A stretch of 64,000 bases of DNA from an uncultured Lachnospiraceae bacterium (GTDB taxonomy: Bacteria; Bacillota; Clostridia; Oscillospirales; CAG-272), in NCBI GenBank assembly GCA_964430755.1, contig CAYSFT010000001.1, positions 31,358 to 95,357 on the forward strand, in the 5' to 3' direction. The notes beneath the pieces are model-generated. The model saw nothing but the letters and a program-made list of their open reading frames with translations, made no database searches and was not told the origin of the DNA. The translations under genes and the position numbers were made by a program. Positions 3,130 to 12,803 of this stretch are shown here, in pieces; positions within the stretch are counted from its first letter, which is position 1, and each line of letters starts with the position of its first letter.

Positions 3130-4719
3130 TCACTGAAACTTCACGTCATATGTGAGTTTACCGTTTGCCGGATACTCACCTGCAAGAACGTCAAGCGTAT
3201 AAAGCGTATTGATAGGCGAGCAGGTTCCGATAATAACACGCGGAATATGCGGAATATCCTCAAGAACATACGGATTTCCGAAATGAACAATAGTCGATAT
3301 GCGACCAGTTATCTGAAGCGCTTCCATAAGCGTGGTTATACGTGCGGTAAAGCATTCACGACCTAAATATGCACAGCTTCTGAAGAAGGTCACAAACACA
3401 ACATCATCACAGTTCTCCGCGCCTCTGAGAACACGCATATTTTCGCTCACACTCGGGAACTGGCTGATCATTGTAAATTCGGAATTCGGATAAAGCTCCT
3501 TGAGTCTGTCCGCTATTTTGAGAGGACTGTACCAGTCGCGGCTGAACGTATCTACCTCGGCACGGTTATTGATGTCAACCGTGGTTTCGGTAAGTATCGC
3601 AAAATAATGCTTTCCGTCGCGTGAAAGTGTCACAGGCACGCCGTCGTCTGTTTTAGCAAAAACGGAATCACGGTTGATCTTATCAAAATCAGTGAGGTCT
3701 TTATCTGTAAGTGCGGTATACTTAGGTTCGGCAAGTGTTTTATGCTGTGCCGCAAGGATTCGTGTAACAGCCTCGTCAAGACGCTCATCGGATATAATAC
3801 CGTCATCGTAGGATTGACACATTGCATCATAAGCAGCCATGTGGTCTCCGTCCCATGCAAGCGCAATATCGTTTCCGTGTCCAACCGAAAGACCGACGCC
3901 GTGCACCCTGCCGAATTTTGCGACTATACCGTGCATACAAAGAGCATCTGTAACGGCGAAACCGTCAAAGCCTTGCTCACGGATGATGCCGATAACCTTT
4001 TCCGAAAGGCTTGCAGGATAGTCGGGATCAATATTAACATAACGTGCATGACGTGTCATGATTCCGTCAAGAAGTCCCTCTTTCATGAGCTCAAGATACG
4101 GATAAAGATTATAGTCAAGCAGTTCCTCAACAGTCGCCTCCGAAATAGCCTCTGCCATATGCGAGTCCATTGCACCCGCGGCACCCTCTCCGGGATAATG
4201 CTTTCCAACAGTTAAAATACCGCCGTCATGCATACCTCTTGCAATAGCGGCTGCCAGCTTTGCAACTTTTTTCTTATCGCTTCCGAGAGAACGGATATTG
4301 GTTCCGACCATACATCTGCCGTCTGCAATATCAAGAATCGGATTGCAAACCACGTTGTAACCGAGTTCACGCGCGGTCACAGCAGTCACCTTGCCAAACA
4401 TATATGCACCGTCCTCGCTGTCGATCATTCCGAGTGCATTGTGCTTACCGATCGAGCGCTCATCGCCGATTCCGCTTTCCGCATCACACATAATAAGGAT
4501 CGGATAATCGGCAGCCTCCTTGATTTTGTCGATTCTTGCCTTTGTGACATCGGGATGATCTTCATCGAAATTCACCCATACAGCGCCGACCGAATGCTGT
4601 TTTATAAGCTCTATGACACAATCAACTTGTTCGGGTGTTGCCTCTCTGAAAACCGTCGCAATTGTGACAAATCCGAGCTTTTGCTTTAAGTTCAGTTCTT
4701 CAAGCTTGAGTTCTCTCAT
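3130..4719 (-). CDS. Glycoside hydrolase family 3 protein (NagZ/beta-hexosaminidase- or beta-glucosidase-like)
   Basis: KHYPGEGAAGAMDSH motif (GH3 KH(F/Y)PG.G...DSH) with an upstream D-rich catalytic region. ATG at 4719 has a GGGGG RBS 7 nt upstream, so the ORF-track start at 4743 is less likely. Confidence 0.75.
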   Translation of the reverse strand: MRELKLEELNLKQKLGFVTIATVFREATPEQVDCVIELIKQHSVGAVWVNFDEDHPDVTKARIDKIKEAADYPILIMCDAESGIGDERSIGKHNALGMIDSEDGAYMFGKVTAVTARELGYNVVCNPILDIADGRCMVGTNIRSLGSDKKKVAKLAAAIARGMHDGGILTVGKHYPGEGAAGAMDSHMAEAISEATVEELLDYNLYPYLELMKEGLLDGIMTRHARYVNIDPDYPASLSEKVIGIIREQGFDGFAVTDALCMHGIVAKFGRVHGVGLSVGHGNDIALAWDGDHMAAYDAMCQSYDDGIISDERLDEAVTRILAAQHKTLAEPKYTALTDKDLTDFDKINRDSVFAKTDDGVPVTLSRDGKHYFAILTETTVDINNRAEVDTFSRDWYSPLKIADRLKELYPNSEFTMISQFPSVSENMRVLRGAENCDDVVFVTFFRSCAYLGRECFTARITTLMEALQITGRISTIVHFGNPYVLEDIPHIPRVIIGTCSPINTLYTLDVLAGEYPANGKLTYDVKFQ

Positions 4720-4809
4720 ATTTTTACCCCCATTTAGCATCAATGCTATATTTTCACATTATTTTATCACATTCATAAACAATTGTCAATGGAGAAAACG
4801 GTAAATATG

Positions 4810-5940
4810 TTATAAGTTTTTGTTTTTAAAATACTGAAAATATCCGCATTTTATCATGCCGTTGTAAAGCGTGCGTACCTTATCGGCACGGCGACCGTAC
4901 AAACGCTCAAAATCGGGAACGGACGTCAGAATATAGATCTGCCACGGCGCAAGACGCGCAAAACAGCGTCCCATAGCACGGTACAACGCCTCAACCTCAC
5001 GCATATCGGATAGACGCTCACCGTACGGTGGATTGCAAACTATCGTTGCGCGCCTATCAGCTTTAACGATCTGCGTTGCATCACGTTCGAAGCATTTTAT
5101 GTGCGCGCCCATATCGGCACGCTTGATGTTCGCGCGTGCAAGATCGACCATGTGCGGATCAATATCGCTTGCATAAACCTCAAAATCGGTGTCACGCTTA
5201 AAGCTCTCTGCTTCCTCACGTGCATCCTTCCAAATCTTTTCGGGTATGTCGTAAAACTCCTCTGCCGCGAAATTACGTCCGAGTCCGGGCGCAGTACCTG
5301 TCATCATCATAGCAGCCTCAATAGCGATCGTACCCGAGCCGCAAAACGGATCCCACAAAAGCACCTCATCGCGCGGACGTGACAGCTTGACCATCGCCGC
5401 CGCAAGGGTTTCGCGAAGCGGAGCAACACCTGCCGCAGGACGGTATCCGCGCTTGTGCAGTGCAACTCCGGAGGTATCAATCATAAGCGTTGCAGTGTCC
5501 TTTAAAATGAAAAACTCAACCTGATATTTAACACCCTCTTCCTTGAACCATGAAACTCCGTATTCGCCGGACAAGCGTTCAACGATCGCCTTTTTGACGA
5601 TACTCTGACAGTCGGGTATACTCGTCAGTGCCGATTTGATGCTGTGACCTTTAACGGGAAATGCATCATCCTCTGCGATCCATGCTTCCCAAGGAAGTGA
5701 GTTTGTTCCGTCGAATAACTCCGTAAATGTCGCGGCACGGAAGCTTCCCATTTTTATATAAAGTCGCTCTGCAAAACGCAGGTTTATGTTACAGCGCGCA
5801 ATTGCCGCCATATCGCCGCGAAATGTAACGCGCCCGTCAATTGTTTCTATACGCTCGTAACCGAGGGCATCAATCTCCTCGCCGAGCAATGCCTCAAGCC
5901 CGAAAAGGCAGGTGGCAACGTATTCATATTTGGTGGTCAT
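4810..5940 (-). CDS. THUMP-domain class I SAM-dependent RNA methyltransferase (RlmL/YpsC-like)
   Basis: N-terminal THUMP-like region, SAM motif I DPFCGSGTIAIEAA and catalytic NPPYGERL. Confidence 0.8.
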   Translation of the reverse strand: MTTKYEYVATCLFGLEALLGEEIDALGYERIETIDGRVTFRGDMAAIARCNINLRFAERLYIKMGSFRAATFTELFDGTNSLPWEAWIAEDDAFPVKGHSIKSALTSIPDCQSIVKKAIVERLSGEYGVSWFKEEGVKYQVEFFILKDTATLMIDTSGVALHKRGYRPAAGVAPLRETLAAAMVKLSRPRDEVLLWDPFCGSGTIAIEAAMMMTGTAPGLGRNFAAEEFYDIPEKIWKDAREEAESFKRDTDFEVYASDIDPHMVDLARANIKRADMGAHIKCFERDATQIVKADRRATIVCNPPYGERLSDMREVEALYRAMGRCFARLAPWQIYILTSVPDFERLYGRRADKVRTLYNGMIKCGYFQYFKNKNL

Positions 5941-6068
5941 ATATATTCCTCCACAGGTTATATTACAATATATTATCTCATATTTTTAGGTAATTGTCAA
6001 GAGGAGTATAATCTCATTTGTGAAAATCAACTTCACCGATTCTTCACAAAGCTTCCCATTCATAACGC

Positions 6069-6097
6069 TTACATACTTCACACACAGGAGGTATAAT
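6069..6097 (+). promoter_or_regulatory. Candidate promoter of the VTC operon (TTACAT-17-TATAAT)
   Basis: TTACAT at 6069-6074 and TATAAT at 6092-6097, 34 nt before the ATG at 6131. Confidence 0.4.
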
Positions 6098-6130: not shown

Positions 6131-6886
6131 ATGCCGCAAACCGTATTCCGACGGCAGGAGTTTAAATATCTTATAACTCATTCACAAAAAGAAAAGCTTC
6201 TCTCGCTCATGGATAAATATATTATCCCCGATGAGTACGGACGAAGCACAGTCTGCTCGATTTATTACGACACCCCGACAAGTATGCTCATCCGCCGCTC
6301 AATTGAATCCCCTATATACAAGGAAAAGTTGCGCATACGAAGCTACGGCAGAGTAAACAAAGACGACACCGTATTCGTTGAAATAAAGAAAAAATACAAG
6401 CATATCGTTTACAAACGCCGCGTCGGAGTCACACTCGAAAATGCCGAGCAGTGGTTATCGGGTAATATTATTGAACGCGCTTACGATATAAAACCGAGGA
6501 CTGCGCAGATAATGAGCGAAATCGACTTTTTCATCTCGCGTTACAGTCCGCTTGAGCCGGCAATGTTCATATCGGCGGAGCGTGAAGCATTTTACGGTGC
6601 AAAGGACCGCGAATTTCGCATTACGTTTGATGAAAACATCCTCTCGCGAAGCACCGAGCTTTCCCTATCATCCGATATATACGGAACACCGATTCTTCCG
6701 GACGGTATGGTGCTTATGGAGCTGAAATCGGGAACATCACTTCCCCTCCCAATCTGCCACGCGCTGTCTGACGAAGGAATCTTCAAAACCAAATTTTCAA
6801 AATACGGCACTGCGTATAAAAACGCTCTCGCCGAAAAATACATAACAGGAGACACCAATAATGAACTTATTCAAAGGATTGTTTGA
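6131..6886 (+). CDS. VTC-domain (CYTH-like, polyphosphate polymerase domain) protein
   Basis: MPQTVFRRQEFKYLI..., SIYYDTP, LRIRSYG and VFVEIKKKY..VYKRR resemble the PF09359 VTC tunnel-fold pattern. ATG at 6131 has a GTGAGG RBS, so the ORF-track start at 6020 is unlikely. Confidence 0.7.
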   Translation: MPQTVFRRQEFKYLITHSQKEKLLSLMDKYIIPDEYGRSTVCSIYYDTPTSMLIRRSIESPIYKEKLRIRSYGRVNKDDTVFVEIKKKYKHIVYKRRVGVTLENAEQWLSGNIIERAYDIKPRTAQIMSEIDFFISRYSPLEPAMFISAEREAFYGAKDREFRITFDENILSRSTELSLSSDIYGTPILPDGMVLMELKSGTSLPLPICHALSDEGIFKTKFSKYGTAYKNALAEKYITGDTNNELIQRIV

Positions 6887-7535
6887 TACCGAGCTTACAC
6901 AGCTTATAAGCGTAACTGATTTTCTTCTTTGCATAGCGGCGGCACTCGTCGTCGGAATCATATTTGCAGCAGCTTATTCTCGTTACAAACCAACCTCAAA
7001 AAGCTTTCTTATGACGCTTTTCATGCTTCCTGCCGTCGTCTGCGTTGTAATCATGATGGTTAACGGAAATGTCGGCGCAGGTGTTGCCGTTGCAGGCGCA
7101 TTCAGTCTGGTACGTTTTCGCTCTGTTCCCGGAAGCGCACGCGAGATATGTATGCTTTTTCTCGCAATGGGAGCGGGCCTTATCTGCGGTATGGGATATC
7201 TTGCATATGCACTGCTCTTTACACTCATCATGTCCGCTATCGTGCTTATTCTGAACGTATTCGCTAAAGGCGATGAGGCGAAAACACTCGTGATAGTTAT
7301 TCCCGAGGATCTTTCCTATTCGGAGCTTTTCGATGATCTTTTCGAGAGATACACAGCAACACATAAGCTGAAGCAGGTCAAAACAACAAATATGGGAAGC
7401 CTTTTCAAATTAAGCTATGATGTAACCTTAAAAAAAGGCATTAACGAAAAAGCATTCATCGACGAGCTTCGCTGCCGTAACGGCAACCTCGAAATAATGA
7501 TATCCGAAAGAGAGGACCTGCAAAATGCGCTTTAA
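6861..7535 (+). CDS. DUF4956-family membrane protein
   Basis: Several TM helices and a conserved AFSLVRFRSVPGSAREI segment. It overlaps the VTC gene by 26 nt, and this pairing is the usual partner arrangement of bacterial VTC-domain genes. Confidence 0.65.
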   Translation: MNLFKGLFDTELTQLISVTDFLLCIAAALVVGIIFAAAYSRYKPTSKSFLMTLFMLPAVVCVVIMMVNGNVGAGVAVAGAFSLVRFRSVPGSAREICMLFLAMGAGLICGMGYLAYALLFTLIMSAIVLILNVFAKGDEAKTLVIVIPEDLSYSELFDDLFERYTATHKLKQVKTTNMGSLFKLSYDVTLKKGINEKAFIDELRCRNGNLEIMISEREDLQNAL

Positions 7536-9351
7536 AATAATATGCGCGTCAGTATTGCTTTCACTGTTGACGCTCGCATCATGTCAAAATAAAACCGATG
7601 CAGACAATGCCATGCCCGGTGTCATAACGCTGAGCAAAAGCCTCACGATCACCGATGAGGGCACATATACGCTAAGTGGCACACTTGAGGACGGGCAGAT
7701 AACCGTTAACGCCGACAAAAACGCAAAAATCGAAATTATCCTTGACGGCGTTGACATAACCTCACAAAAAAGTGCACCGATCTATATAAAAGAAGCCGAC
7801 AAGGTGATACTCACTCTCGCCGACGGCAGTATCAATTCACTAACGAACACCGACGGATATGCAGCCATTGACGACAACAATATCGACGCGGTAATATTTT
7901 CTAAAGCAGATCTCGACATAAAAGGCGGAGGTGAACTTCACGTAAGTGCAAACGAGGGAAACGGCATCACCTCAAAGGATGATCTCGTGCTTGACGGCTG
8001 CAATATAACAGTCAAAGCAGGCAATCACGCGCTTGAAGCAAACGATCTTGTATCAATTTCAGGCTGTACGCTTGACCTGACCGCCGTTAAGGATGCAATT
8101 CACAGCGAAAACGAGGACGACACCACACTCGGCAATATAGAAATCATCTCAACAACAATAAACGCTTCTTCTCAAGGCGACGGAATTGATGCCGGCGGAT
8201 ATATCATGATAGATAACTCAACCGCAGATATAACCGCAAATGAAAAAGGCATCGTTGCGGCAGGAAAGCTTTCGATAAGCGAATGTTCAATGAAAATCAC
8301 CGCTGTTGATGACGCGCTCCATTCAAACGGCAGCCTTTTAATAAACGGCGGAGATTATGAGCTCAAAAGTGAGGATGACGGTATCCATGCCGACATGAAC
8401 GTTCGTATAAACAGCGGCGATATAACCGTCACAAACGCCTATGAGGGCATCGAGGGACAGACAGTTGATATTGCCGGCGGCAACATTTATCTCAACACAA
8501 GCGATGACGGAATCAATGCAGCCGGCGGAAATGATCAGAGCGGCTTTGGCGGCGGGGGCGATATGTTTGCCGTTGACGAAAATGCTTATGTCGTCATCTC
8601 GGGCGGTAAGATAGTAATAAACGCAAACGGTGACGGAATCGACTCAAACGGCAGACTGACCGTAACAGGCGGAGAGCTTTACATCTGGGGACCTACCTCC
8701 GGAGCAAACGGCGCACTCGATTATGCAAGCGAAGCAACAGTCGAGGGTGGTATAGTGGTTGCTGTCGGTTCAGTCGGAATGTCGCAGAATTTCACAAGCA
8801 GCTCAACTCAATGCTCATTTATGCTAAACTTAAACGGCAATGAAAAAGAAGATATTACAGTTTCAGATGGAGATGGCAATATTATAATTACGTTCACTCC
8901 GGAAAAAAAGTTTTCAAGCGTACTCGTCAGCCATCCGGATTTTGCGCTTAATGAAACCTACACCATAGCATCCGGCGAAACCTCACAAACCGTTGAATTT
9001 ACCGCCACCATTGTCGGCGGCAGCTTCGGAGATTTCGGAGGCTTCGGCGACTTCGGCGGAGGCGGCTTCAGAGGCGGACGAGGCGAACGTCCGAACGGAG
9101 GCTTTGAAACAAACGAGGACGGATCCATCCCCGTAATGCCCGAAATGCCTGATGGCGGCAATATGCCGACACCGCCCGACATGGGCGAATGGCAGGAGAA
9201 GGGAGAAAGGCCTGAAATGCCCGAGGGTGGATTCAATTTTGATGGCGGCTTCCCCGGTGATATGACACCGCCGGACTTTGAAAATATGCCGGGTATGCCG
9301 CAAAAGCCTGATGAGGAAACAACATCCGAGGAAACCGACCACAATGTCTGA
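7525..9351 (+). CDS. Lipoprotein with Cthe_2159-like beta-helix carbohydrate-binding domain and a low-complexity C-terminal tail
   Basis: Signal peptide with lipobox LLTLASC. The body consists of degenerate repeats (...DAIHSEN..., ...DGIDAGG..., ...DALHSNG..., ...DGIHADM..., ...DGINAAGG..., ...DGIDSNG...). It overlaps the upstream gene by 11 nt. Confidence 0.65.
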   Translation: MRFKIICASVLLSLLTLASCQNKTDADNAMPGVITLSKSLTITDEGTYTLSGTLEDGQITVNADKNAKIEIILDGVDITSQKSAPIYIKEADKVILTLADGSINSLTNTDGYAAIDDNNIDAVIFSKADLDIKGGGELHVSANEGNGITSKDDLVLDGCNITVKAGNHALEANDLVSISGCTLDLTAVKDAIHSENEDDTTLGNIEIISTTINASSQGDGIDAGGYIMIDNSTADITANEKGIVAAGKLSISECSMKITAVDDALHSNGSLLINGGDYELKSEDDGIHADMNVRINSGDITVTNAYEGIEGQTVDIAGGNIYLNTSDDGINAAGGNDQSGFGGGGDMFAVDENAYVVISGGKIVINANGDGIDSNGRLTVTGGELYIWGPTSGANGALDYASEATVEGGIVVAVGSVGMSQNFTSSSTQCSFMLNLNGNEKEDITVSDGDGNIIITFTPEKKFSSVLVSHPDFALNETYTIASGETSQTVEFTATIVGGSFGDFGGFGDFGGGGFRGGRGERPNGGFETNEDGSIPVMPEMPDGGNMPTPPDMGEWQEKGERPEMPEGGFNFDGGFPGDMTPPDFENMPGMPQKPDEETTSEETDHNV

Positions 9352-9391
9352 TAAATAAGAAAAAGCCGTAACAGTGCATATTACAGCATCG

Positions 9392-10171
9392 TTACGGTTT
9401 ATTTCTGTATTTTAACGGGGAGACACCCATTCTCTTTTTGAAGAGTCTTGAAAAATAAGTATAATTAGGTATTCCGACCGATGTGGCGATCGTTGAGACG
9501 CTTTCATCACTCTCTCGAAGAAGAGCCGCAGCCTTGTGGATGCGTCTTCTGCTTATATATTCATTAACAGTACATTCAAAATAAGAGTGAAAAGCCTTGT
9601 AAAGCGAATTTCTTGAAACATACAGATAGTTGCAAAGCTGATCAATTGAAAGATCGGAAGCCAGATTCTTGTCAATATATTCGAGCGCTCTGACAATAAC
9701 GTCATCACAGTCAACCTCAATTGCACTATCGAAAATTATATATGATATCAGATTAATGAGGTTTGCCATCTGTTTATCGGAAAGAGAGCCCATCATCGCA
9801 TACTGAGGATCGTTTTCGGAATCCCCGATAACAACATCATTGTTTGGCCTTACGCGGCCTATCATTATAATTCCGACAACTGTGTGATTCTTGATAACGG
9901 GAACGGCTGTGTCAAGCAGTCCTGCGTGGCAGATATGTGAAACGGGACGCTTTTCTTTCATACAGCGGCTGATAAGATCCATATCTGAGCAGCTGCACAA
10001 TGCACGTCCTTCGGCAGTTTCCTGCACCTGCGTACAAATAATATCGGTTTGTCTTATTTGCTTGTATAAATAGTTACTGTGCGTATCCGTAAAACCCATG
10101 CTGAGTTCAGTCAGACCGTAAAGATTGTCTATTATCGCTTTTATCTTTTCAACGTCATATCTTATATTCAT
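9392..10171 (-). CDS. AraC-family transcriptional regulator with N-terminal PocR-type sensor domain
   Basis: HICHAGLLDTAVPV (PocR-like) and a C-terminal AraC double HTH (...SRNSLYKAFHSYF...STIATSVGIPNYTYFSRLFKKRMGVSPLKYR). ATG at 10171 is preceded by a GGGGGTGG RBS. Confidence 0.75.
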   Translation of the reverse strand: MNIRYDVEKIKAIIDNLYGLTELSMGFTDTHSNYLYKQIRQTDIICTQVQETAEGRALCSCSDMDLISRCMKEKRPVSHICHAGLLDTAVPVIKNHTVVGIIMIGRVRPNNDVVIGDSENDPQYAMMGSLSDKQMANLINLISYIIFDSAIEVDCDDVIVRALEYIDKNLASDLSIDQLCNYLYVSRNSLYKAFHSYFECTVNEYISRRRIHKAAALLRESDESVSTIATSVGIPNYTYFSRLFKKRMGVSPLKYRNKP

Positions 10172-10358
10172 CCGCAGCCACCCCCTTTGCATAATGATAC
10201 TATAAACTTTTCAAATTGTCAAGATGTTTTTTTGTTTTTTTGCACACCGGGAAGAAAAGGCAAAAAACAGTGAAGATTTGTCTATTGTAATTCGCGTCAA
10301 GTTGTGATATAATAAAATTTAGATACAATTTTGAACCCATGGCAAAGGAGAAAAAAAC

Positions 10359-11231
10359 ATGAATTTTACAGCAGCTCTATGCATCCTGCTAATAACTATA
10401 ACCACATCAATTCAAAATATATTAAAAAAGCAATACGGCAAACGAAAAAACAGCAGCAGCGTATACATTTTCAGCTCACTGACGGTTTTCAGTGCATTGG
10501 CAGTCTTTTTCATAAGAGGACTTATCACAAACACGCTGAGCTTTGACATAGGAATTCTTCCCTATGCGATTATATTCGCAACCGCATATTGTGCGGCAGC
10601 CATCTTCAATCTGATCGCAATTCAATGCGGCTCGCTTTCACTGACTTCCCTGATCGTTTCATACTCACTGATGATACCAACCCTTTACGGCTTGATATTT
10701 AACGGCGATCAGGTTAATGAGTTCTTTTACATAGGTCTTGCATTCCTGCTTCTCAGCCTCTTATTTGTTAACAGAACCTCCGGCGGAGACGTTAAAATAA
10801 CATTAAAGTGGCTTATCTGCGTTATAATTGCTTTCGTCGGAAACGGCATCTGCTCAACAGTACAGCCCGAGCAAAGTAAAATATTCGAAAACAAATATGA
10901 TGATACCTTTATGGCGATCGCGCTTGCGATAGTTTTCATAGTACTCCTCGTTTTTGCACTTATTAAGGACAGAAAAATCTTCCTCCCGACGGTAAAAACG
11001 AACGCACACTTGATGGTGCTCTGCGGTCTTTCAAACGCTGTTGCAAATCTCCTTGTTATGGCGGCGACAGGTCTCGGCGTTAATAAATCGCTCATGTTCC
11101 CGCTTATCAGCGCAGGCGGAATCGTCATCGCATGGATAGTGTCGGTGTTCCTTTACAAGGAAAAGTTAAGTAAAAAACAGCACCTCGGTCTTGCGCTCGG
11201 CGTTATCGCGATTGTGTTCCTCAATTTGTAA
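10359..11231 (+). CDS. Multi-pass membrane transporter, DMT/EamA-like
   Basis: About 10 predicted TM helices with a two-fold internal organisation and an AAAGGAG RBS. The family call is from topology and composition only. Confidence 0.5.
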   Translation: MNFTAALCILLITITTSIQNILKKQYGKRKNSSSVYIFSSLTVFSALAVFFIRGLITNTLSFDIGILPYAIIFATAYCAAAIFNLIAIQCGSLSLTSLIVSYSLMIPTLYGLIFNGDQVNEFFYIGLAFLLLSLLFVNRTSGGDVKITLKWLICVIIAFVGNGICSTVQPEQSKIFENKYDDTFMAIALAIVFIVLLVFALIKDRKIFLPTVKTNAHLMVLCGLSNAVANLLVMAATGLGVNKSLMFPLISAGGIVIAWIVSVFLYKEKLSKKQHLGLALGVIAIVFLNL

Positions 11232-11247
11232 TAGTATAAAGCATAAT

Positions 11248-11287
11248 CCCCTGCTCCGTTTTTGTGAAGCAGGGGAAATTTTTGTTT
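11248..11287 (+). terminator. Rho-independent terminator after the DMT-like gene
   Basis: CCCCTGCT (11248-11255) pairs with AGCAGGGG (11268-11275), followed by AAATTTTTGTTT. Confidence 0.7.
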
Positions 11288-12803
11288 AGTCGATGCTCTT
11301 CATTGTGGGGAACAAGAGCACGTCACGGATTGCGGCAGAGTCTGTGAACAACATACACATTCTGTCAATACCAAATCCGATACCGCCTGTGGGTGGCATA
11401 CCGATCTCAAGTGCATTAAGGAAGTCCTCATCAGTGTGGTTAGCTTCCTCATCGCCCTTTGCGAACTGTTCTTCCTGCGCCTTGAATCTCTCGCGCTGGT
11501 CAATCGGGTCGTTAAGCTCGGAATAAGCGTTAGCCATCTCCCAACCGTTCATGAAGAACTCGAAACGCTCAACATACTCGGGATTATCGGGCTTCTTCTT
11601 GGTAAGCGGCGAAATTTCAACCGGATGATCCATAAGGAAGGTCGGCTGAATGAGATGATGCTCAACAAACTCCTCAAAGAAGAGGTTGAGAATGTCACCC
11701 TTGGTGTGGCGATCCTCGTAGTGAACGCCCTTTTCGTCTGCAACCTTGCGTGCTTCTTCGAGCGTGTGGATATTGCTGAAGTCTACATCTGCATACTTCT
11801 TAACAGCGTCAACCATTGTGATACGCTCAAACGGCTTACCGAGGTCCATTTCAACGCCGTTATAAGTGATCTTGGTCGTACCAAGCACTTCTTGTGCTAC
11901 AAAGCGGTACATATTCTCGGTGAGATCCATCATGCCGTGATAATCGGTGTAAGCCTGATAAAGCTCCATCAGCGTAAATTCAGGATTATGACGGGTGTCA
12001 AGTCCCTCATTACGGAAAACACGTCCGATCTCGTAAACGCGCTCAAGTCCGCCAACGATAAGACGCTTTAAGTATAATTCAAGCGAAATACGAAGCTTAA
12101 AATCCTCGTCGAGAGCGTTGAAGTGAGTTTCAAAAGGTCTTGCAGCCGCACCGCCCGCATTGGAAACGAGCATGGGAGTTTCAACCTCCATGAAGCCCTG
12201 TGAATCGAGGTAACGGCGGATTGTGCTTATAATCTTGGAGCGCTTGACGAATGTATCGCGCGATTCCATATTTGTGATAAGGTCAATATAACGCTGACGG
12301 TAACGAGTGTCGGTATTGGTAAGACCGTGATACTTCTCGGGAAGAATCTGGAGACTCTTTGAAAGGAGTGTCACGCTCTTTGCATGAACCGAGATTTCAC
12401 CTGTCTTTGTTGTGAAAACAGTACCGACAACACCGATAATATCACCGATATCGAGCTTTTTGAAGCCTTTGTATTCTTCCTCGCCGATATCATCACGTGC
12501 AACATAGCACTGAATGTTACCCTTGAGATCGAGCACGTTACAGAACGATGCCTTACCCATAACGCGCTTGGACATCATACGTCCTGCGATGGTAACATCC
12601 TTGCCCTCAAACTCGGCGTAATTTTCCTTTATATCGGTTGTGTGGTGTGTAACGTCATATTTAGTTATAACGAAGGGATCGTTTCCCTGTGCCTGAAGCT
12701 CAGCCAGCTTGTCGCGGCGAACCTGCAGGAGCTGATTTAATTCTTTTTCACTCATGGGAGCTGCTTCTGTTGCCGCCTGAGTGTTTCTTTCGTTTTCTGC
12801 CAT
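11286..12803 (-). CDS. lysS: Lysine--tRNA ligase (class II)
   Basis: Full-length match to the LysS pattern: OB-fold N-terminus, [25 protein letters not shown] and GIGFGIDRM. Confidence 0.95.

Follow-up and report, generated by a model that had tools for sequence, protein, structure and literature searches.

What might a bacterium do with three overlapping genes that encode, in order, a relative of the catalytic domain of the yeast polyphosphate polymerase Vtc4, a DUF4956 membrane protein and a surface lipoprotein of the Cthe_2159 family? We addressed this question for a gene trio at positions 6131-9351 of a 64,000-nucleotide (nt) stretch of DNA, hereafter the window, from an uncultured Lachnospiraceae bacterium (contig CAYSFT010000001.1). 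An earlier reading, made from the DNA letters and their translations (the sequence-only reading), had proposed a polyphosphate (polyP) synthase/exporter, or else some other triphosphate-tunnel enzyme that feeds a cell-surface polymer, and we retain this proposal as a hypothesis. Polyphosphate in bacteria is usually credited to PPK1 and PPK2. That the trio is kept in many gut bacteria suggests a machine for making polyP and bringing it to the surface of the cell, and the system is best filed as an uncharacterised bacterial form of the VTC polyP-polymerase theme.

The putative tunnel enzyme

The first gene (6131-6886, plus strand) encodes a protein of 251 amino acids (aa). Its longest open reading frame (ORF) runs from GTG 6020; we preferred the ATG at 6131, which has GAAGTGAGG upstream, because all homologue N-termini align there. 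A profile search placed the protein in the VTC family (PF09359; E = 4.5e-39): the match scored 134.8 bits, where the cutoff is 23, and took in positions 2-232 of the 235 in the model. The protein has no hydrophobic segment, and its 251 aa hold the VTC domain alone. When the AlphaFold2 (AF2) model (pLDDT 89.5, pTM 0.86) was searched with Foldseek, the top 13 solved structures were all yeast VTC tunnel domains (Vtc4, Vtc2 or Vtc3, mostly Vtc4; E = 5e-14 to 2e-10). The best matches were Vtc4 structures 3G3R and 3G3Q (E ~5e-14), and at a TM-score of 0.71 the tunnel fold is like that of the yeast VTC complex (Vtc4/Vtc3 or Vtc2/Vtc1; 3G3Q, 7YTJ, 8I6V). CYTH cyclases, ygiF and thiamine triphosphatase followed at E = 4e-8 or worse.

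To compare active sites, we reconstructed Vtc4 residues 191-481 and took the numbering from chain 8i6v_E and from 7ytj_D, a chain with the R264A/R266A mutations. We then used hhalign to align this sequence to the profile of the VTC family over 225 columns (Prob 92.5). In this alignment the window residues R8, E10, K12, R68 and R70 correspond to R196, T198, K200, R264 and R266 of Vtc4; K86, K95, A149, R151 and R163 to K281, K294, Y359, R361 and R373; and E197, S223 and K224 to E426, S457 and K458. Every mapped position except 149 is invariant among 31 homologues. The five basic triphosphate-binding residues are thus present (K12, R68, R70, K86 and R151), as are the invariant equivalents of the metal ligand E426, of S457 and of the active-subunit K458. 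The mapping of these last three comes from hhalign, because a sequence-only search of the PDB with the C-terminal third of the family found no Vtc4 match.

In a cryo-electron microscopy study of the yeast complex, K200, R264, R266, K281, R361, K458, S457 and Y359 were each required for polyP accumulation, E426 of Vtc4 was found to hold Mn2+, and K458 was the sole residue to differ in the inactive Vtc2 and Vtc3 (10.1101/2023.01.27.525886). Eight of nine residues required for polyP synthesis, K458 included, are also found in the window protein, which therefore bears the signature of an active subunit. From its fold and active-site residues, the first protein is probably a soluble triphosphate-tunnel enzyme of the Vtc4 polyP-polymerase type, and its catalysis would be of that kind.

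The membrane protein and the lipoprotein

The second gene (6861-7535, plus strand) encodes a 224-aa protein that a profile search assigned to DUF4956 (PF16316; E = 9.9e-16, 58.4 bits; cutoff 30.6). The family has 4630 clusters at 50% identity (E<=1e-3), and its conservation is unusually high: mean column identity was 76% for DUF4956 (53 homologues) vs 58% for VTC in comparable sets, with a nearly invariant transmembrane core. The AF2 model predicts five helices over residues 18-137 (nt 6912-7271, plus strand; helices 18-40, 47-66, 71-88, 93-111 and 114-137), followed by an ACT-like domain of beta-alpha-beta-beta-alpha-beta order at residues 140-216 (nt 7278-7508, plus strand). In a Foldseek search the C-terminal part weakly matched ACT domains (E = 6e-3, TM ~0.28 on the whole query). 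The SLVRFRS segment that the sequence-only reading had singled out (residues 82-88, nt 7104-7124, plus strand) is invariant at all seven columns in the 53 homologues. Lys/Arg-rich loops at residues 41-47 and 85-94 lie on the same side of the membrane as the C-terminal domain in the model, and by the positive-inside rule this side would be the cytoplasm. With that topology, SLVRFRS (R85, R87) would sit where helix 3 ends on the cytoplasmic side, and residues 68-70, an invariant NGN, would face outside.

The architecture resembles that of MgtC/YhiD proteins, in which several helices precede a small alpha/beta domain, without a significant sequence relation. A DUF4956 homologue has been labelled an MgtC-like transmembrane domain plus ACT (PMC12345266), as in one source annotation. 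Our comparisons did not support such a kinship: the match to PF02308 reached only E = 0.98 and 10.2 bits (cutoff 31.4), and hhalign against E. coli YhiD gave Prob 0.2% in a limited test that set a low-diversity profile against one sequence.

The third gene (7525-9351, plus strand) encodes 608 aa and matched the Cthe_2159 family in two stretches (PF14262; E = 1.4e-79, 267.5 bits); phmmer recovered the founding structure (4peu_A) at 7e-43 over ~235 residues. A signal peptide with the lipobox LASC (nt 7525-7584, plus strand; LASC at residues 17-20, hydrophobic segment 3-21) and the lipobox Cys20, kept by 90% or more of 48 orthologues, mark the product as a predicted lipid-anchored lipoprotein. 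The beta-helix spans about nt 7639-8784 (plus strand) and is followed by an unassigned region and by a G/F/P/M/E-rich low-complexity tail (residues 498-608, nt 9016-9348, plus strand) that is not conserved. Repeats of the form D-G/A-I/L-H/D/N recur (DAIHS, DGIDA, DALHS, DGIHA, DGINA, DGIDS), and conservation among the 48 orthologues falls mostly on 16 Asp and 21 Gly residues, on Asn and on two His, in DDxxH/DGI(D/N/H) turns. This Asp/His/Asn/Gly ladder looks like a cation-binding ladder, and may allow cation-bridged binding as in pectate-lyase-like proteins. The window lipoprotein shares clear homology and stacked Asp-rich turns with the founding Cthe_2159 (4PEU, PF14262); unlike it, the protein encoded here has double the length, with two PF14262 stretches, is predicted to be lipid-anchored and carries a low-complexity tail. 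Cthe_2159 of Clostridium thermocellum binds cellulose and polygalacturonate, as cited in 10.1101/401869.

All three family assignments made by the sequence-only reading were thereby borne out, including the 608-aa lipoprotein with its LASC lipobox and Cthe_2159-type repeats, and so were the coordinates of the three overlapping genes. The overlaps (26 nt between the VTC and DUF4956 genes, 11 nt between the DUF4956 and lipoprotein genes) had been taken to imply stoichiometric co-expression; they argue for translational coupling, not for a fixed stoichiometry.

Linkage, exchange of the third partner and surroundings

In a pattern-limited scan of one genome per species we found at least 579 VTC relatives, of which the best 80 loci were analysed, with linkage counted only where a locus had enough sequence. 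By their record titles, the 80 loci belong mainly to Oscillospiraceae, Lachnospiraceae, Acutalibacteraceae and Ruminococcaceae; Roseburia inulinivorans DSM 16841 is a named isolate among them. DUF4956 directly followed VTC in all 75 countable loci, with an 8-nt overlap in 43, and a Cthe_2159 gene stood third in 59 of 63. The three-gene linkage is thus conserved in relatives, with the same order in dozens of species. None of the outcomes that would have told against the sequence-only reading was seen: the family assignments hold, the basic tunnel residues are kept, and the linkage extends to related genomes. The closest VTC relative (92% identity), in the Clostridia metagenome-assembled genome GCA_017466685.1, has the identical trio together with the PocR/AraC and EamA neighbours of the window.

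In 39 of 63 loci an OmpR-type response regulator (~225 aa) and a HisKA kinase (~415 aa; no HAMP domain, extracytoplasmic loop ~130 aa) lay within a few genes, usually directly upstream (for example L012:5969-7895 and L018:5936-7866). This pair is generic OmpR/HisKA; it could not be assigned to phosphate sensing or to any named system because its best NCBIfam matches, to the RppA/RppB and PhoB/PhoR models, all fell below their cutoffs. The clade of the window lacks the pair and has a convergent PocR/AraC regulator instead (9392-10192). Other neighbours (an ABC ATPase, an AraC regulator, purine enzymes, RelA_SpoT, SDR, Crp, MatE and HtrA proteins) occurred in few loci each and were set aside as unrelated housekeeping. 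One of the four loci without Cthe_2159 (L056:9451-11630) carries, directly after DUF4956, a GT2-GtrA fusion and an NAGPA-type phosphodiester glycosidase, which are enzymes of sugar-phosphate polymer chemistry. We also looked at four metagenome-derived candidates for Rosetta-stone fusions (P0377, P0411, P0477 and P0463), which join partial VTC to partial DUF4956 or partial DUF4956 to Cthe_2159; we read them as deletion, frameshift or assembly artefacts because the domains that they join are each cut short where they meet.

Five distant cases, in which the third partner varies, came from searching annotated plasmid and chromid records with tblastn. Paenibacillus cellulosilyticus has a divergent kinase and regulator followed by VTC, DUF4956 and Cthe_2159 (632 aa). 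In Acetoanaerobium noterae the order is regulator, kinase, VTC, DUF4956 and a PLD-like (cardiolipin-synthase-like) protein, this PLD-superfamily member (L094:7513-9069) having PLDc_N and two PLDc motifs. An Enterococcus faecalis plasmid carries VTC, DUF4956, regulator, kinase and CotH; Nonomuraea gerenzanensis has VTC, DUF4956 and CotH; and on pNP95 of Pseudobutyrivibrio xylanivorans CotH precedes VTC and DUF4956 within an exopolysaccharide cluster.

CotH also adjoins Cthe_2159 itself. A 99% copy of the founding Cthe_2159 (L087:3556-6861) directly follows the gene for a CotH protein of ~800 aa, and the orthologue in Acetivibrio clariflavus (CP003065; L090:2003-6870) likewise directly follows a gene for a CotH protein of about this size, inside an exopolysaccharide cluster that has pyruvyl-transferase and FrhB-like genes in common with pNP95. 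These CotH proteins also bear LTD, Fn3_assoc and CHB_HEX_C_1 domains, and in A. clariflavus a transposase insertion interrupts the gene for CotH. Unlike the window, these founding neighbourhoods have no VTC or DUF4956 gene in the 6 kb upstream; in A. clariflavus both are absent from the 6 kb downstream too, and the contig of the near-identical copy ends ~2 kb downstream. Each of the three possible pairings among VTC+DUF4956, CotH and Cthe_2159 thus occurs as a gene linkage.

Part of this arrangement has been described before. A set of CotH, "polyphosphate polymerase" and DUF4956 (plus DUF4832) adjoins Gram-positive pel operons (10.1101/768473), and a CotH/VTC/DUF4956 set occurs in NELoc-2 of Clostridium perfringens, where DUF4956 was mislabelled tubulin/FtsZ (PMC2879425). 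These sets share with the window the VTC+DUF4956 pair, its adjacency and its order, and they are tied to loci for cell-surface polymers; unlike them, the window has no CotH and no pel or exopolysaccharide genes nearby, and a Cthe_2159 lipoprotein stands third. The synteny of VTC, DUF4956 and CotH is therefore already published, whereas we found no paper in the literature searched that links Cthe_2159 to VTC or DUF4956, or that reports the version with a two-component system. A 2023 review mapped VTC-domain proteins in eukaryotes only (PMC10657179).

Within the window, a promoter-like site (CTTACA-18 nt-TATAAT, 6068-6097, plus strand, 10/12 matches) lies ~34 nt before the first start; it is a consensus match only, and such sites are no commoner in the region than in shuffles. 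Shine-Dalgarno-like AGGAG and GAGAGGA precede the DUF4956 and lipoprotein starts, respectively, by 7-8 nt. Downstream, a hairpin at 9362-9400, assigned to neither strand and with U-rich runs on both sides, is terminator-like and common to the operon and the convergent PocR/AraC gene. The fold of 9352-9412 (-22.3 kcal/mol, z -6.66) was equalled by 0/200 shuffles, and a minus-strand terminator-like site was found at 9387-9365, so that the hairpin is probably a bidirectional intrinsic terminator that closes the operon. With a promoter-like site at the 5' end and a terminator hairpin at the 3' end, the trio thus makes up a transcription unit of its own. An RlmL-like methyltransferase gene (4810-5940) is divergent from the operon, and the PocR/AraC regulator gene converges on it.

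Further out lie genes for a melibiase/beta-L-arabinopyranosidase-like protein (1156-2589), a GH3 protein (3130-4743) and an EamA transporter (10359-11231). The first two of these, with the AraC/PocR regulator adjoining, raise the alternative that the operon serves the use of plant polysaccharides: the beta-helix would bind pectin or cellulose or be lyase-like, as the carbohydrate-binding annotation of the Cthe_2159 family might suggest, and the other two proteins would aid carbohydrate uptake or sensing or, in a variant, the uptake of extracellular polyP. We consider this very improbable. These neighbours are kept in the closest relative alone, so the melibiase-like, GH3 and EamA genes are probably unrelated to the operon; across the 80 genomes only the two-component system recurs, and VTC and DUF4956 are both unlike sugar transporters or sensors.

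No CotH-like ORF was found across the 64-kb window, nor any tRNA gene or Rfam family at threshold, and the region that precedes the gene for lysine-tRNA ligase (11286-12803, minus strand) was no exception. An exact-match look-up of the VTC protein gave two short metagenome contigs only, and the DUF4956 protein had no record. NCBIfam had no model for any of the three operon proteins. The PADLOC defence-protein models likewise matched none of the three, and we dropped the idea of an anti-phage defence system; a plasmid origin of the window was dropped as well, for want of any DNA match.

A possible polyphosphate synthase with a membrane conduit

Taken as a tentative proposal, our best reading is a polyP synthase coupled to a membrane conduit and serving a variable cell-surface partner. 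The VTC protein, in the cytoplasm, would take the gamma-phosphate of ATP and lengthen a polyP chain, as its fold and active-site residues suggest. Given the obligate adjacency of the two genes, it would be made together with DUF4956 and probably dock on it. DUF4956, probably oligomeric, would provide both anchor and conduit, its Arg85 and Arg87 facing the cytoplasm, and would be a functional analogue of the Vtc1/3/4 transmembrane channel without homology to it. The gene order and the CotH and PLD-like alternatives point to a product that would reach the outer face of the membrane, where the acidic beta-helix may hold or process it, probably through divalent cations, or apply it to a surface glycopolymer.

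As in yeast VTC, the tunnel enzyme is here obligatorily tied to a membrane component. Unlike yeast VTC, the window system has no SPX domain, no DUF202-type three-helix domain and no Vtc1-like subunit, and its membrane partner is a separate and unrelated protein of five predicted helices plus a predicted ACT-like domain. The product would leave the cell and not enter a vacuole, and regulation would fall to a two-component or AraC-type regulator in place of inositol pyrophosphates. The tunnel itself differs from that of yeast by an added Glu (E10) and, in the clade of the window, by the absence of Tyr359.

Several observations weigh against a synthase coupled to a conduit, and the first two concern the active site. 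The sequence-only reading had looked to the basic tunnel residues and the catalytic Lys; K224 (K458) and the basic residues are kept, and Tyr359 has become Ala149 (codon 6575-6577). In yeast, Y359F reduces polyP (10.1101/2023.01.27.525886). Position 149 is Ala or Cys in the five closest relatives and Tyr in the other 25 aligned homologues, a clade-specific change in the active site. The extra tunnel Glu, E10 (Thr198 in Vtc4), is invariant and occupies the position of the second Glu of ExExK, a motif of hydrolytic tunnel enzymes; the protein might therefore catalyse hydrolysis or another reaction.

These two features favour an enzyme that is no polymerase: a tripolyphosphatase, a nucleoside triphosphate phosphohydrolase or a cyclase that drives or signals to the membrane protein, the whole being a signalling or energising module. 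That ygiF, CYTH cyclases and thiamine triphosphatase were also significant structural matches fits this account. The E-values of the Vtc4 matches are nevertheless lower by some six orders of magnitude and their TM-scores higher, the first Glu of ExExK is Arg in the window protein as it is in Vtc4, and the K458 of the polymerising subunit is invariant. We regard a non-polymerase as improbable.

The remaining difficulties concern the conduit, the lipoprotein and the published record. Confidence in the AF2 model of DUF4956 is moderate (pLDDT 75). Its membrane part matched no solved structure in Foldseek, hence no solved channel; its sequence found chance matches only and no relative in the PDB; and DUF202, the Vtc transmembrane domain, did not match it at E<=10. 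Since searches by sequence, profile and fold brought out no similarity, we take DUF4956 to be no homologue of the channel of yeast VTC, and context is what speaks for a channel role. We saw no full-length VTC-DUF4956 fusion. The mature lipoprotein is strongly acidic (isoelectric point 4.05; 97 D+E vs 28 K+R), so direct binding of a polyanion such as polyP is unlikely without bridging cations. In S. intermedius, deletion of the VTC homologue gave no clear phenotype (PMC12345266), and for bacterial VTC members in general we found no report of enzyme activity, product, interaction or localisation in the literature searched. The claim that the pairing has no experimentally defined function accordingly stands as regards activity; it needs amending in that the pairing is published and that deletion phenotypes exist in S. 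intermedius, where loss of the DUF4956 or the CotH homologue reduced Pel-dependent aggregation and altered Pel levels, in a study that left the mechanism open (PMC12345266).

If DUF4956 were no conduit, polyP made by the VTC protein might stay inside the cell. DUF4956 would then tether or regulate the synthase, by metabolite sensing through its ACT-like domain or in an MgtC-like phosphate or energy homeostasis, and the lipoprotein would be a separate carbohydrate-binding surface protein that is co-transcribed by chance. The weak resemblance of the C-terminal domain to ACT regulatory domains is in keeping with such a role, and so are the characterisation of Cthe_2159 as a cellulose and polygalacturonate binder (cited in 10.1101/401869) and the view of authors who call the homologue MgtC-like plus ACT and suggest that polyP may remain cytoplasmic (PMC12345266; 10.1101/2024.04.20.589940). 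Against it, the MgtC similarity went undetected in both comparisons (Pfam E 0.98; hhalign YhiD Prob 0.2%), and the third gene, whose start lies within the second, is retained in 59/63 loci. Elsewhere its slot always holds a secreted or membrane protein of phosphotransfer type, and an irrelevant third partner is hard to explain because the slot is always refilled by CotH or PLD. Cytoplasmic polyP with a membrane regulator seems rather unlikely to us.

The proposal of a synthase coupled to a conduit can be taken one step further. CotH and PLD proteins are extracytoplasmic and belong to phosphoryl-transfer families, and delivery of a donor to the cell surface is for this reason the most economical common theme. 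VTC+DUF4956 might then be a polyP synthase-exporter that supplies an energy-rich phosphoryl donor outside the membrane, where there is no ATP, for CotH, PLD-like or Cthe_2159 proteins, as interchangeable partners, to phosphorylate or cross-link surface proteins or glycopolymers. We consider this fuller version unlikely as it stands. Were it true, the catalytic domain of eukaryotic VTC could have its ancestor in the bacterial pair.

If the proposal of a synthase coupled to a conduit is right, a Vtc4-type enzyme tied to its own membrane protein would constitute a second bacterial route to polyP, possibly to extracellular polyP. Secreted CotH kinases would gain a plausible phosphoryl donor, and the "carbohydrate-binding" Cthe_2159 family would come to be understood differently.

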